Positions 3,001 through 9,000 of a stretch of 56,388 nucleotides of DNA are shown piece after piece. The position numbers were made by a program. Position 1 is the first letter of the stretch; each line of letters opens with the position of its first letter. The DNA comes from a virus (lineage: Duplodnaviria; Heunggongvirae; Uroviricota; Caudoviricetes): the IMG/VR virus record IMGVR_UViG_2909282993_000001, positions 1 through 56,388 of that record, one strand, 5' to 3'.

Positions 3001-6000
3001 TGAATAATTCATAAGCTTCGCGTTCATCTGGTTCTACTTCCAGAGATAGGAGTGCGATTTCATAAGCACGGCGCTCAATATCGTCTCGCACGTCAAGGCT
3101 GCTGATACGCTCTTTAATTTCTTTAATCAGTTCTTTGTCGGTAAAAGTGGTCATTATGCTCCAGCCTCCGGTGCTTTTGGCATTACTGCCCAGTGAGTGA
3201 TATTGACGTTTTCAAGGTCCCCGACCTGAAATGTCCACTGCCATTCTCCGGTTTCTTTTTGTCCCCAGGTGTACCAGAGAGAACGCCAGCCAATTAGCCA
3301 GCCTTCTCCGTTAGCATCGAATAACAAAACACTTTCATTTGCTGGTGGCAGTTCAGTTGACACTGGTATTACTTTGTTTTCCTGTGCTGCACATTTAGCT
3401 TCAAGCGCATCGAATTTACGCACTAGGTATTCAGCATCTGTTTCATTTACTTTCAGATCTCGCGGTACACATCTCCCACGAAGAAACCCTTCCATTTCGA
3501 AAACATTCATGCGCATTTGCGTAACTCCGATAACTCGTTAAAGCGTTCCATAAACATCCCGTAGGCATGGCCCGGAGCCAGTGGAATCACGTTGAACATC
3601 TCTGTTGCCGGGATACCTTCCAGTACAGGCCAGAAAGAGCCATCATCAAGCCCGAGATCGCGGCGTTCGGTTGCCAGCATGATGAGATCGGCATATTTCA
3701 CGGGCGTACTCATAACTGGGGGTAACCCGTATTTCTCACGGATTACGGCGTCTATTTTTTCTTCCATTTGTTTATAGTCAGGAAGAAGGCGTTTCAGTGG
3801 TGCGGGAATGTCCTGGCAATACGCTTCTGTTGCATCATGCATTAACGCTTCAAAAGCAAATTCCTGCGGCACCAGCTGGCTGCAAAGAACCGCATGTTGG
3901 GCGACGCTGTAGAAGTGCGAAAGATGACCGGCAAAGCGACAGATATTTGAAAGGGAAACCGCGATATCGTTAATATCGATGTCGTCTTTATTTATCCTGT
4001 CATAATAAAAATGCTTCCCGGAAAAAGTTTTAATAAATGACATTTTGTTCTCCACGTATATGCGCTGCACCGCGCTGAATTCTGGTAAAAAGAATCCCTC
4101 ACCATCCGGCGATTATTGAGTAAATTACGTTTCCATAAATGCCCCCGCAGGGGCATTTGCAGTAATGAAATCAGGCGGTGAAAGTACCAATAAAGGTTTC
4201 TACTTTGCTGTCCTTGAATTTCTCAACAAGCAGATCACGAAATTCGTTAGCCATTTCTTCCTGCACCGCCTCCAGCTGAATAATGCGTAGAACCAGTACA
4301 GGACGATCGCCAGTGATAATACTGAGGCGTAATTTAAACGGACGTTCTTTCAGACCTTCAAACGGAACGCATTTAAATTCAAATGCCACTGGCATAATGT
4401 CTTTGGTCTTCGCTTCGACAGACTCCATCAGGGAGCGTTTGCCGCTGAAGTCATTATCTTCAAAATCAGCGGTCTGGTTTGCTTCAATCGTGATTTTACG
4501 GACAGCCGCAGCCGCTTTTGTTGCCTGAATAGCGTCACCATTAGCATCAAAGCCCACAAGATAGTCGGCCCAGTCTTCAATCCATTCTGCCAGTGACTTC
4601 TGGGAGTTACGCTCGCCGTTAACAGACAACAGAGCAGAGAACGGTGCTGTCTTTTTCAGTTTGAGTGTGGCGGTGTTATCTGCGTGACCTGGTTCATCAA
4701 TAGTACCCAGGTTAAGCACACTGACGGCACGCATATTATCAGCATCGATAAAGCAGCGGGTGCCTTCATCTGCAAGATCTTTAGAATAACGGGTAAAGTC
4801 ATCGATGCTGGCAGTGGAAAGCGCACCACGGAAACGGAAGCGATTTAAATTAAATTTTTCCAGATCATGAATGCGGAAATTCTCAGGCAATGCCACAGCA
4901 TCGGCACCAATCTTACTGATAATTTCATTAACACCCTGAGCAGAAATAAGGGCATGGATTTGATTAATTGCGGTTGCGTCTAAGTTCTGAGACATAATAA
5001 GTCCTCACTATATAAAGATATTCAGTGATGAGATAAATAATCAGTTAATTAAAAACGATATTAACGACCTGCTGCGCGGAGTTTTCCGTCAGGTTCACCG
5101 GCAAGAGTCAGTAACTGTCCCTGGTCTTCCTGCAGAATAGTCAGGCGACCACCGCGATTGACATACATCGGCGTTTCGGTGGTGTCTTCTTCGGAAATTT
5201 TCCCGCGGTTAGTCGGGCGAACATATGAGAGTTTGTGTTTGATTTTCACACGGTTCTCATCAAATGGTTCGATTTCCAGGTTGAGTGAGACCTTACCTTT
5301 GGTTTTCGTGTTCATCACACCGGAAGCGACTTCACTGAGAACTGCGCCGATTTTGGTTTCAAATACGCCGCCGTCCAGCTCCCCGATAAATGCCTGCACA
5401 TCAGTACTGCGTTCGCTAGCCATTTTGCTGCTCCTCATCATATCGACCCTGCAAGGCCGATTAGTTTCTCCACAAAACAGAGAAGAACACCTGCGGTGGC
5501 AGCCGCCCGGATGGATTGGGTTATGAGCCCGTCGTCCGGTGATGCTCTTCTCTGTTTTGTAAAAAGGACGGTACCAGCCGGAAGCAAGGGTACAAACTGG
5601 TACCTCCAGGACTACACACAGCATAAAGTTGTGGTGCCGGGTGCCTCCCGGTGCCTGGCGAAGGTTGCACACCAGACGGGTGGGTATCCACAGAAGGTCG
5701 ACTGTCAGCCTCACCTTAACCCGCGTGCGCTGAGCCGCATTCACCACAACGCTAAGGATTCTCTCTGGTTAAAAATACTTAGCTGTTATGTGCCTGCTTT
5801 TAGCCACATCAGGCGAGGTGGACCTGGTTATTCCCCAACAACAAGGATTCGGTTAATCTGGTTATCCCCAACAACGCAAAAGGAAAAGAAATGTCCGGTA
5901 ATATCTACACGCTGTACAAATCCCACTGTGAAAATGTTGGAAAGTATCGGGGCATTGAAATCAGTGGGGTAGTGTCATCAGTCGAAATAAGCAAAGTGGA

Positions 6001-9000
6001 ATCAAGGGCAACATTACTTACTCTTCTGGACCTTGTCTTACATGAGCACCGGAAGAAATTCGGCACTCCCTATAATCAGTTGAATGGGAAAAAGGCTCTG
6101 GTTCACCTTATTCTGATGAAGCATCACTGGATGCCAAAACAGATTAATGAGATGAAATTTGATGAACTTCTTCTTTCAATTCAGGATGAACTCACACTTG
6201 ATAAAATAAGCGTAACCGCCCAGAAATTTTTAGATTATCGAGACTGGAGATCACAAATTCATCACTTTGATGATTTTGACGAAAATGAATGGGATCCTAA
6301 TTTGTCTGCACAATATCTAAAGTAACATCCTGTGATAAAACCGTGATTTCCTGATCCAGTTTTTTTAAGGAGTCTATTGTTTCCTGTCGATAAGACAGCA
6401 CTTCACGAAGCTGGTTTATAGCTGCCAGCTTCTTTGCCATCCACTCGTAAATTTCCTCATTTGTGTATCCGGGCGCGACGATTTTGGGTTCTGTTTTGTG
6501 CATTTCACACCTCCTCAAGTTATCAGTTACTTGTTGATGGGGACCAGATTGTTAAAGAGCTAAGCGTCCTGTAGGGCGCTTTTTTGTTGCTAACGAATCA
6601 CCCTAGACTTTATATGCCCCAGGCGGCTACTTCGTGGGCGTCCTGCCTGTTCGTTGTTTCTCTTGGGTACATTATGTATCTCATGGGTACATTGTCAAGT
6701 ATAAAAAAACCTGCCGAAGCAGGTTCATAAACATTGATTAGGCTTTGATTTTGTATCTTCTTGGTTTTCCTGAGAAAATCACAGTTCCAATTATAGAGCA
6801 ATTACCGTTGATCTTAATGTAAGGCTCAGGCCAGTTTGGGTTTAACGCTTTGAGATAACGCTGTGTCCCATCTTCTATCAACCTTTTGAAGGTGGTTTCA
6901 CCTGTATCGTGCATCAATGCAATAACGTCGTCACCGTGGCAGGCTGGTACTTCAGGATCGACAAAAATCATGTCTCCCGGGCGGTACTCATCAATCATTG
7001 AATCACCTATCACCCGCAAGATATAAGTCATTTCCCCACAGGGTACAGGGCAGGGATACGTTTCTGCTGTGCTCAAATCAACCTCAGAATATCCAACTTC
7101 TTTCCATGCTCCGGCCTGTACCCATGATATGACAGGGACTAATGTGATTTGTTTATTAGTGATTGAAACATCAGGTTTTTTTGTGATGTTCGTTGTCTGG
7201 TGTTCTTGATCGAGCCATCCAACAGGCAGGTCGAAACATTTTTCGATGTGTCGTGCCATGCTGTCACCGATATTTTTAGTAGCACCATCTCCCATAAACC
7301 TGCTGGTCTGGGTTGGCTCGCGATCAATCATAGTGGCAAAGGAAGAATTCCCGCCAACACCATCTCTCAGTTTTCTGGCGTTAGACCGCCGGATGTCATG
7401 GATTGTTTTCATAACGAAATTAAAACCCTTGTACCGTTAAGGTACAAGTATCTTGAAGGTTCATTTTAATCATGTAATATGTACACCGGAGGTACATATT
7501 GTATGAAAGCGTATTGGGACTCTTTAACCAAAGAACAGCAGGGCGAGTTGGCCGGAAAAGTTGGCTCAACACCTGGCTACTTACGGCTGGTTTTCAATGG
7601 CTATAAAAAAGCCAGTTTTGTGCTGGCTAAAAAACTTGAGCAATGCACGTCAGGTGCAATTACGAAATCTGACTTAAGACCGGATATCTATCCGAAAGAT
7701 TAGCAGAACACTTTCAATTTTTAACCACAGAACGATGAGGCTAACCGTGGGTAAGCATCACTGGAAAGTAGAAAAACAGCCTGAGTGGTACGTGAAAGCT
7801 GTCAGAAAAACTATCGCAGCGTTGCCGGGGGGGTACGCTGAAGCTGCTGACTGGCTGGATGTAACAGAGAACGCATTATTTAACCGCCTTCGTGCCGATG
7901 GCGATCAGATTTTCCCGCTGGGATGGGCAATGATTTTGCAACGTGCTGGTGGAACTCACTTCATTGCTGACGCTGTGGCGCAGTCTGCAAATGGCGTCTT
8001 TGTGTCTCTTCCTGACGTCGAGGATGTGGACAACGCCGATATTAACCAGCGCCTGCTGGAAGTCATTGAACAGATCGGCAGTTATTCAAAACAGATTCGT
8101 TCAGCAATTGAAGACGGTGTAGTGGAACCGCATGAGAAGACAGCAATTAACGACGAGCTGTACCTCTCAATTTCGAAGCTGCAGGAGCATGCAGCACTGG
8201 TCTACAAAATTTTTTGCATTTCAGAAAGTAATGACGCCCGCGAGTGTGCAGCTCCGGGCGCCGTGGCGTGTCGTGACTGTGGAGAAACTAACGCATGAAC
8301 AGTTTAACAACACACTACCGTCGCTCGCAACTGATTGCGCTTCCTGTACCGGGTGGAAAAGCGAAGGTGGAGTATTGCTATGCAGTAAATGTACCAGGTG
8401 ACAGGGAAATTGTAACCCACAGCTTTGCAGAGTGGGCTGTGGGTGATTTCAACCGGCAGAAGGAGACAGTCCTTTGCGACAAGTTAACCGCTGGTTCAAA
8501 GATCACTACGGAGTGCCCGTCAGAGTCATTCGTTGGGAGCCGGAAACACAACGGGTTATCTACCTCCGCGAAGGCTATGAGCATGAGTGCTTCAGCCCGC
8601 TCGAACAGTTTCGTCGTAAATTCAGGGAAATAGAGGTCGGTCATGAGCACTAAATTAACCGGCTATGTATGGGATGGTTGCGCTGCATCAGGCATGAAAT
8701 TATCCAGCGTGGCAATTATGGCCCGCCTGGCTGATTTCAGTAATGACGAAGGTGTGTGCTGGCCATCAATTGAAACCATTGCCCGCCAGATTGGCGCGGG
8801 GATGAGTACCGTCAGAACGGCTATCGCACGGCTGGAAGCAGAAGGCTGGTTAACGCGTAAGGCGCGTCGCCAGGGTAACCGCAATGCGTCGAATGTTTAT
8901 CAGCTTAACGTTGCGAAGCTTCAGGCAGCGGCATTTTCTCAACTGTCAGATTCTGACCCGTCAAAATCTGACGCATCAAAATCTGACCCGTCAAAATTTG

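Follow-up and report, generated by a model that had tools for sequence, protein, structure and literature searches.

A modular non-coding RNA with an STnc100-like core and a KilS-like seed is predicted in the early-left operon of an SfIV-type lambdoid prophage

What does a lambdoid prophage encode in a 467-bp gap that separates one of its early genes from an opposing cargo gene? The window analysed here, the full 56,388 nucleotides (nt) of IMG/VR record IMGVR_UViG_2909282993_000001, is an SfIV/SfV/CPS-53-type lambdoid prophage inserted at tRNA-Thr beside proA. The gap (5424-5890) lies between yfdP (5061-5423, minus strand, with its ATG at 5423) and a 144-amino-acid (aa) open reading frame (ORF) on the plus strand (5891-6325), which we call the cargo gene. 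The gap is 100% identical to the chromosome of Escherichia coli O169:H41 F6326-C1 and 99.6% identical to Shigella phage SfIV. An original prediction, made from the sequence alone, described this region as structured and repeat-dense, and offered three readings of it: a structured non-coding RNA, a set of nut, terminator and operator elements, or the regulatory region of the cargo gene. Our analysis supports the first, in the form of an STnc100/KilS-type RNA on the early-left strand. We think it probable, at somewhat better than even confidence, that the minus strand of the gap encodes a modular non-coding RNA, namely an Hfq-type prophage small RNA (sRNA) composed of a structured domain (D), a seed segment and a terminator, and embedded in the early-left operon transcribed from the PL promoter.

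The hairpins, the repeats and the ORF of the original prediction are all present, at most ∼1 nt from where it had placed them, and they exceed chance expectation. They comprise an inverted repeat (25-nt arms at 5472-5496 and 5536-5560, separated by 39 nt and 84% complementary, with a perfect core of 15 nt), an 8-bp perfect hairpin (5570-5577 with 5597-5604), a GC hairpin CCGGGTGCCTCCCGG (5637-5651), and two direct repeats, TGGTTATTCCCCAACAAC (5825-5842) and TGGTTATCCCCAACAAC (5859-5875), for which dinucleotide-preserving shuffles predict 0 matches. Read on the minus strand from 5800 to 5424, the region folds at −155 kcal/mol (z = −4.56), and 0 of 100 shuffles folds as well. The 89-nt long hairpin alone reaches −45.5 kcal/mol, with a z of −7.27 on the minus strand and −6.1 on the plus strand, and domain D (5626-5753, minus strand, 128 nt) is weak by this measure, with z values of −1.7 to −2.0 on either strand. 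We set folding energy aside as uninformative about D and about the strand. Since it cannot separate the strands, both strand and function were assigned from comparative evidence.

A permissive Rfam scan aligns the full STnc100 model (RF02076, positions 1-206) to 5780-5559, on the minus strand only, with 37.1 bits and an E-value of 1.2e-5. The scan thus places an STnc100-like RNA on the early-left strand, although the match stays below the family's gathering threshold, which is why the locus has gone unannotated. With the same model, the phages ST64B, phiES15 and SJ46 score 35–42 bits and the Shiga toxin 2 (Stx2) phage Min27 scores 207.7 bits. The other Rfam matches at E ≤ 10 (snoR72, mir-9412, rsmX and ftsZ-DE) are at chance level and were rejected. 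Relatives of domain D were collected by BLAST (ST64B, phiES15, the P1-like phages SJ46 and JL22, and mEp460) and by scanning viral contigs for the hairpin ACCGGGAGGCACCCGGCACC and for the window-type first hairpin. From 31 relatives of the window class we built our own covariance model, R1. In the window it finds a single copy (92.5 bits, E 3.8e-23), which occupies 5753-5626 of the minus strand, and it also recovers STnc100-class copies, such as that of Min27 (locus L128) at 55.7 bits. A search of the fetched loci with R1 returned 100 matches in 79 sources.

Domain D, as modelled on the minus strand, consists of a closing stem, P1 (5750-5742 with 5636-5628), a first hairpin, H1 (5739-5726), a second stem, P2 (5723-5719 with 5681-5677), and two further hairpins, H3 (5675-5655) and H4 (5651-5637). 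We counted covariation in D on 99 distinct sequences. Standard pairs fill 90.5% of the cells, as against 70.0% after shuffling (0 of 500 shuffles as high) and 36–42% when the partners are slid by one to three columns. Changes on both sides affect 22 of the 30 pairs (18.4 in the shuffles, with 0 of 500 as high) and 590 individual cells (191.5 in the shuffles), and the covariation score is 0.468 against 0.140 shuffled. The alignment was fitted to the model and is to that extent biased towards the structure, but the margins over both controls are still large. All seven pairs of H3 covary, and even H4, otherwise constant, switches its middle pair from G-C to U-A (CCGGG/CCCGG to CCUGG/CCAGG). The comparison with relatives therefore yields strong evidence of pairing and of compensatory change. 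It upholds the STnc100 architecture for D, with its closing stem, internal hairpins and CCGGGAGGCACCCGG hairpin, and the frequent G-U pairs among the relatives fix the strand as minus.

The family alignment also points to a pseudoknot, in which the nucleotides just after H1 pair with the loop of H3; in the window, 5717-5713 (AAGGU) would pair with 5665-5661 (ACCUU). Across the family, 53 distinct helix sequences occur at this site, among them AAGGUUG/CAACCUU, AAGGCUG/CAGCCUU, UGGUUAU/AUAACCA, CAGUUAA/UUAACUG, CCAGUC/GACUGG and GACUGACA/UGUCAGUC. An initial test on loose sequence windows did not discriminate (7.4 bp for matched and 6.0 bp for mismatched partners), and so it was replaced by one confined to the loop of H3 and the 15 nt that follow H1. 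In this restricted test, matched partners form on average 6.7 bp at −9.0 kcal/mol, compared with 4.3–4.4 bp and about −4 kcal/mol for shuffled loops or for partners from other classes. Both the MAFFT and the covariance-model alignments leave the pseudoknot strands of different subclasses out of register.

Immediately downstream of D on the minus strand lie the parts that tie the window to known sRNAs. These are a single-stranded, seed-like segment, UGCUGUGUGUAGUC (5610-5623), which extends to ...CUGG, and an intrinsic terminator (5561-5607) with a stem at 5607-5566, the core GGUACCAG/CUGGUACC, a U tract, UUUUU, at 5565-5561, a z of −2.88 and covarying changes in the stem. The seed sequence UGCUGUGUGUAGUCCUGG is identical in the window and in the E. 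coli K-12 sRNA KilS. Seed and terminator together match KilS at 55 of 76 aligned positions (72%), and are homologous to its 3′ two-thirds. Of 236 fetched loci, 43 carry the segment, placed either before or after D. KilS was predicted from RIL-seq data, verified by northern blot in wild-type and hfq-deletion strains, and described as derived from the 5′ untranslated region of kilR, possibly with its own promoter (PMC8175672). In K-12, kilS (b4833) lies in the Rac prophage between sieB on the plus strand and kilR on the minus strand. Synteny is kept, in that Rac runs sieB(+), kilS, D, kilR(−) and the window runs ECs1072(+) (the family of the cargo gene; see below), RNA, yfdP(−).

Searching K-12 with R1 places a D copy in each of two such contexts. 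In Rac, D scores 119.9 bits at 1418260-1418393 (minus strand), directly after KilS and 30 nt before the kilR ATG. In Qin, it scores 133.5 bits at 1649451-1649583 (plus strand), 17 nt after DicF and 25 nt before the dicB ATG. Neither copy is overlaid by an annotated feature in the record tables retrieved, and a limited literature search found no description of the pseudoknot or of D in the dicF-dicB and kilS-kilR spacers. Among 5426 complete E. coli genomes, 4720 have a match to the dicF-D-dicB type of region. DicF has a terminator related to those of KilS and the window, and the Rfam DicF model matches KilS at 39 bits; the window segment itself gives no DicF match at E ≤ 10 in the Rfam scan. 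The arrangements differ from that of the window in several respects. Rac has the order KilS-D-kilR and Qin likewise has its seed and terminator before D, whereas in the window D comes first, followed by the KilS-like part, the long hairpin and yfdP. The seed of DicF is a different one, directed against ftsZ. The window seed is preceded by D rather than by the 5′ hairpin of KilS, and the consensus scan shows no promoter. As a consequence of the swapped order, the RNA predicted for the window is about twice as long as the 98-nt KilS and carries D at its 5′ end.

The same core is found in STnc100/EcOnc27/sRNA103 of E. coli O157 and in PasD of enteropathogenic E. coli. All share the closing stem GGUG...CACC, a first hairpin after GAAU, a hairpin loop that forms the pseudoknot, the hairpin CCGGGAGGCACCCGG, an unpaired linker and then an intrinsic terminator, and they are likewise prophage-borne and point the same way as the operon around them. 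STnc100 overlaps EcOnc27/sRNA103, which binds Hfq and lies downstream of stx2B (PMC12711010), and STnc100/EcOnc27 has been detected in outer membrane vesicles (PMC12370729). STnc100/EcOnc27 and PasD are both Hfq-associated prophage sRNAs (PMC12711010; bioRxiv 10.64898/2026.05.13.724894), and a shared ancestry and structure of PasD and STnc100 has recently been proposed (bioRxiv 10.64898/2026.05.13.724894). The window copy departs from these in its score (37 bits against 208 for the Stx2-phage copy), in its first hairpin (UGCG-GCUCAG-CGCA, compared with CCCCU-GUGCGG-AGGGG in STnc100), in its linker, which is the KilS seed, and in its location, which is the early-left operon between the immunity region and yfdP rather than the late operon near stx2B/Q and nanS-p. 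In Stx2 phages, D is STnc100 itself (207.7 bits), between stx2B and nanS-p. In Min27, AsxR (3196-3248 of L128, minus strand) is convergent to STnc100 and directly abuts it.

Elsewhere, D occurs in varied settings. We classed 215 distinct D contexts by the position of a terminator-like hairpin: it lies downstream of D in 97 (the window type), just upstream in 52 (the type of Rac and Qin) and on both sides in 12, and none was detected by D in 54. A terminator-like hairpin with a U tract within ∼125 nt downstream of D is present in 109 of the 215. In P1-like phages D lies ∼40 nt before tciA, in SJ46 with no terminator between them, and in phiES15 it lies upstream of kil. A more divergent variant with CCGGAGAUCAGCACCGG as its last hairpin, unreported by Rfam and scoring 25.8 bits with R1, is found in mEp460 (2695-2834 of L131, minus strand), where it runs into the same terminator and long hairpin as in the window, with no ORF between PL and yfdP. 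In some viral contigs, D-type elements stand in tandem in groups of three or four, ∼255 nt apart (L073 4378-4998, L026 371-991 and L016 2323-3354), much as paralogous sRNA genes do in arrays. D is also present in Salmonella, Cronobacter and P1-like phages, and a genome scan of narrow gap range (13 loci, informative as to taxonomic range only) adds Pantoea, Enterobacter, Rahnella, Leclercia and Buttiauxella. The K-12 prophage CPS-53 lacks the element, and its yfdP keeps the same Shine-Dalgarno sequence and ATG. ST64B (L003) additionally carries an isrK-family RNA (5231-5307, plus strand, 64 bits) in its early-right region.

Several further parts flank D, the seed and the terminator in the gap. 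Directly 5′ of D on the minus strand is the hairpin P0 (5751-5783, z −3.71), whose counterparts in ST64B and phiES15 have an equivalent structure of different sequence. At the head of the RNA module is a conserved block, CCACCUCGCCUGAUGUGGCUAAAAGCAGGCACAUAACA (5790-5824), which the window and phiES15 have in common despite differing flanks and whose 25-nt core, allowing three mismatches or fewer, occurs in 41 of 234 loci. The block is a candidate promoter or processing region; a consensus scan of 5780-5890 found no sigma-70 promoter for either the RNA or the cargo gene, and the candidates read by eye within the block are weak. Downstream of the terminator, the long hairpin (5472-5560, minus strand) has an outer stem of 20 bp, at the top of which sit two small internal hairpins. 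It is near-invariant across 25 sequence variants, among which three different genes occur downstream, and in ST64B it shows, as read by eye, compensatory changes and G-U pairs that match a minus-strand RNA. The long hairpin is likely an RNA processing or stability element of the read-through messenger RNA. Beyond it, sequence and fold define a yfdP leader (5424-5471, minus strand), with a small hairpin CGGCCUUGCAGGGUCG at 5459-5444 and the Shine-Dalgarno sequence GAGGAG at 5437-5432, which differs among relatives according to the downstream gene.

How would such an RNA be transcribed within an early operon? The PL-like promoter, TTGACA-16-CATAAT (6698-6671, minus strand), has TGGGTACAT repeats on both sides, which mark the operators (∼6665-6700). 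About 105 nt downstream of its −10 element lies an exact rrn-type boxA, GCUCUUUAACAA (6560-6549, minus strand), the only exact boxA-like sequence on this strand. It is preceded directly by a hairpin (6581-6562, minus strand), in rrn-like boxB-boxA order, and this hairpin is the minus-strand complement of an intrinsic terminator (6562-6590, plus strand) that likely ends the cargo transcript. Within the gap itself, no lambda-type nut site, that is, a boxA with a boxB hairpin, was found; H4 is boxB-like in size (a 5-nt loop on a 5-bp stem), but it is kept by phages whose regulators differ. Of the nut, terminator and operator elements envisaged originally, the terminator is thus in the gap, where the GGTACCAG hairpin is the stem that precedes the five U residues, while the nut-like site (boxA and hairpin, 6549-6581) and the operators lie outside it. 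No N-like arginine-rich protein is evident. The first ∼30 nt of the PL transcript, GAACAGGCAGGACGCCCACGAAGUAGCCGCC (6622-6652 in the window and ∼3130-3160 in ST64B, both minus strand), are conserved despite differing promoters and operators, and show no similarity to the put sites of phage HK022.

From these parts we propose the following model. The RNA would run, from 5′ to 3′, through the conserved block, P0, D as the structural core of the STnc100/EcOnc27/PasD family, the unpaired UGCUGUGUGUAGUCCUGG and the intrinsic terminator. RNA polymerase that is not termination-resistant would stop at 5561 and free an sRNA of ∼190–225 nt, which may bind Hfq like its relatives and act in trans by base pairing through the unpaired segment, with D serving as a 5′ structural module for stability or factor binding. 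During induction, PL transcription modified at the boxA (6549-6560) would read through the sRNA terminator, and the read-through RNA would pass the 89-nt hairpin, a probable RNase III or stability element, and express yfdP through int. On the opposite strand, the ECs1072 cargo gene would be independent, with its own upstream repeats and its own terminator.

A number of observations weigh against this model. The window's STnc100 score of 37.1 bits does not reach the gathering threshold of 47 bits. Its pseudoknot has 5 bp rather than 7 (AAGGU-G, compared with AAGGUUG) because of a 1-nt T deletion in the 5′ strand (5713-5717) relative to the closest relatives, L007 and L234. A pseudoknot with invariant nucleotides exceeds what a base-pairing sRNA needs, and the presence of D directly before dicB, kilR and the P1-type tciA with no following terminator points to a cis role that lies outside an sRNA model. 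No convincing sigma-70 promoter was found upstream of P0, so that the 5′ end of the sRNA and its independent expression are predictions from sequence. The roles of boxA read-through and of the long hairpin are ones that we infer.

The main rival takes up this suggestion of a cis role. D might be chiefly a cis-acting leader of the early-left operon, in which the binding of a host or phage factor, or processing, controls the next gene and the sRNA-like product is a by-product; it ranks as the main rival because D often abuts the starts of toxic early genes with no terminator in between. The next gene is often a toxic division inhibitor (dicB, kilR, kil or tciA; here it is yfdP). In K-12, D sits 25–30 nt before the dicB and kilR starts, directly after the DicF and KilS terminators, an order of terminator then D that holds in 52 of 215 contexts, and the placements before tciA in SJ46 and before kil in phiES15 fit the same idea. 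In mEp460, moreover, the first ∼450 nt after PL are non-coding and contain the D variant, and the combination of invariant junction and loop nucleotides with a covarying pseudoknot resembles a binding fold. Yet in the window, as in 97 of the 215 contexts, a terminator stands between D and the gene downstream, and in Stx phages what comes after D (STnc100) is a terminator and the convergent AsxR rather than a gene. The downstream genes are mutually unrelated, and D leaves the ribosome-binding site free in the cases read. We regard a predominantly cis-acting D as possible but doubtful. A type III toxin-antitoxin system, in which an RNA antitoxin precedes its toxin, was also considered and was rejected, as the downstream proteins are mutually unrelated while D is constant.

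The remaining alternatives fare worse. A put-like processive antiterminator, which as in HK022 would act in cis to make polymerase resist the following terminator, could explain why a structured RNA of the window type stands upstream of a terminator inside an early operon with no evident N-like protein, and the several copies in some viral contigs are compatible with it. But put consists of two stem-loops of ∼70 nt next to the promoter (PMC9378689), whereas the window element is ∼900 nt from PL; in Rac and Qin the element is found downstream of the terminator, it occurs as well in Stx phages that encode N and Q, and the boxA-type site near PL already offers a route to antitermination. When the gap and the PL leader were compared by BLAST with the early region of HK022, only chance words of 9–14 nt turned up. 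We consider such a function very unlikely. Still less credence attaches to an action of the repeats at the DNA level, as operators, recombination sites or cruciforms. The perfect 15-bp arms of the inverted repeat and the almost invariant long hairpin, which folds equally well on either strand, are what such sites might look like, but many pairs of the family are G-U on the minus strand and would be A-C mismatches on the other, the orientation always follows the direction of transcription, only on the minus strand does a U tract come after the terminator stem, and the immunity operators lie elsewhere. Least credible of all is a decayed or mis-annotated gene, whether the 'frameshifted hypothetical protein' of PGAP (5438-5747), SfIV_34/35 or a 228-aa extended YfdP. 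The gap is indeed spanned by a 228-aa ORF on the minus strand and a 158-aa ORF on the plus strand, and they are annotated in SfIV and as a PGAP pseudogene; against this, a 1-nt insertion or deletion at ∼5713, relative to the 98%-identical Escherichia albertii copy and to the commonest viral-contig variant, shifts all frames, and the changes seen in relatives keep RNA pairs and not codons. The 228-aa reading is rich in Cys and Arg and matches no family, and yfdP has its own Shine-Dalgarno sequence and the ATG at 5423, the start used in K-12, where the gap is absent.

The cargo gene is read against the early-left direction. Its GC content is 38.6%, compared with 52.5% for the gap and 48.9% for the window, and it has a ribosome-binding site, AAGGAA, upstream. 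The 144-aa protein belongs to the phage-associated ECs1072 family (NCBIfam NF033230; 157.8 bits against a cut-off of 70, residues 4-144 aligned to profile positions 2-142), which is represented by only 65 related clusters among 1.8 billion cluster representatives. H72 and W134 are invariant in an alignment of 38 sequences, and with this alignment AlphaFold2 predicts an all-helical fold with a predicted local distance difference test score (pLDDT) of 93.9 and a predicted template modelling score of 0.88; a single-sequence model (pLDDT 38) was discarded. Searches of Pfam, of PADLOC and of the PDB by sequence and by structure gave no match. The original prediction had placed this gene where lambda carries rex- or sieB-type exclusion genes, antisense to the early-left operon. 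The placement is borne out by Rac sieB, which has the same position and orientation relative to kilS and kilR, and by homologues of 30–38% identity, which keep the slot beside a CI-type repressor on the strand opposite the early-left genes. The cargo gene is also AT-rich and has its own terminator. An exclusion function, by contrast, drew no support from the PADLOC, Pfam or structural comparisons: the protein is soluble and all-helical, and comparison revealed no resemblance to SieB or Rex in sequence or fold.

The third of the original readings, regulation of the cargo gene, applies to the two direct repeats and to nothing else in the gap. These repeats, TGGTTAT(T)CCCCAACAAC (5825-5842 and 5859-5875, plus strand), stand upstream of the cargo gene, and a diverged pair, TCTGGnTAT...ACAAGG, precedes a 56%-identical homologue lacking the RNA element. 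We assign the repeats to the cargo gene on the strength of this recurrence, and on sequence grounds they are probably its own cis-regulatory region. A comparison with E. albertii (L234 216-708 against window 5410-5900) shows the gap 98% identical and the ECs1072 protein only 72% identical, which points to a mosaic recombination joint at the start codon. In phiES15 (L004, ∼2790-3040, plus strand), an unannotated ORF of ∼85 aa (MFSVRVELRNSETADYTALHEKMKAHGFYQF...), unrelated to ECs1072, occupies the same opposite-strand slot beside the same conserved block.

At its 3′ end the cargo gene converges on a 68-aa ORF (6297-6503, minus strand), the first gene of the PL operon, with an overlap of 29 nt. 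The homologues of 30–38% identity also keep this convergent small ORF (68–87 aa, 34–46% identity), and the conserved pair suggests a functional or regulatory coupling. The overlaps of the 3′ ends range from 29 to 95 nt (6297-6325 in the window, 619-713 in L237, 664-722 in L239 and 1070-1133 in L234). In the rest of the local map, cI (6738-7412, minus strand) and then cro lie beyond the operators, and yfdT, yfdR and yfdQ (DUF2303) lie between yfdP and int (1459-2622, minus strand). The integrase gene is abutted by the attachment-site tRNA-Thr gene (1369-1441, plus strand). Far downstream, at 42212-42279 (plus strand), the window carries an int-alpA RNA (RF02996, 45.5 bits).

If the gap encodes an RNA as proposed, then SfIV-like phages and hundreds of E. 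coli genomes would carry an RNA gene where the annotation now reads 'hypothetical protein' or 'frameshifted pseudogene'. STnc100/EcOnc27/PasD, KilS of Rac and DicF of Qin, which have so far been treated separately, appear to be one modular system around a single covarying pseudoknotted domain. Opposite that RNA stands a cargo gene of a conserved family, with a confidently predicted fold, in the classic position of an exclusion gene. The domain shared by STnc100, the dicB and kilR leaders and the P1-type tciA leaders may merit follow-up more than the window locus itself. We tentatively raise, as a minority view, that D is a distinct, widespread class of pseudoknotted RNA in Enterobacterales prophages, a factor- or ligand-binding or catalytic fold that gates early or accessory genes, notably dicB, kilR, kil and tciA. 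Such a class would have been overlooked in the K-12 spacers, and the seed-terminator modules of the DicF and KilS type would be interchangeable on either side of D. As D adjoins Shiga toxin genes and prophage division inhibitors, a defined function for it would bear on prophage control, toxin expression and the evolution of sRNAs.

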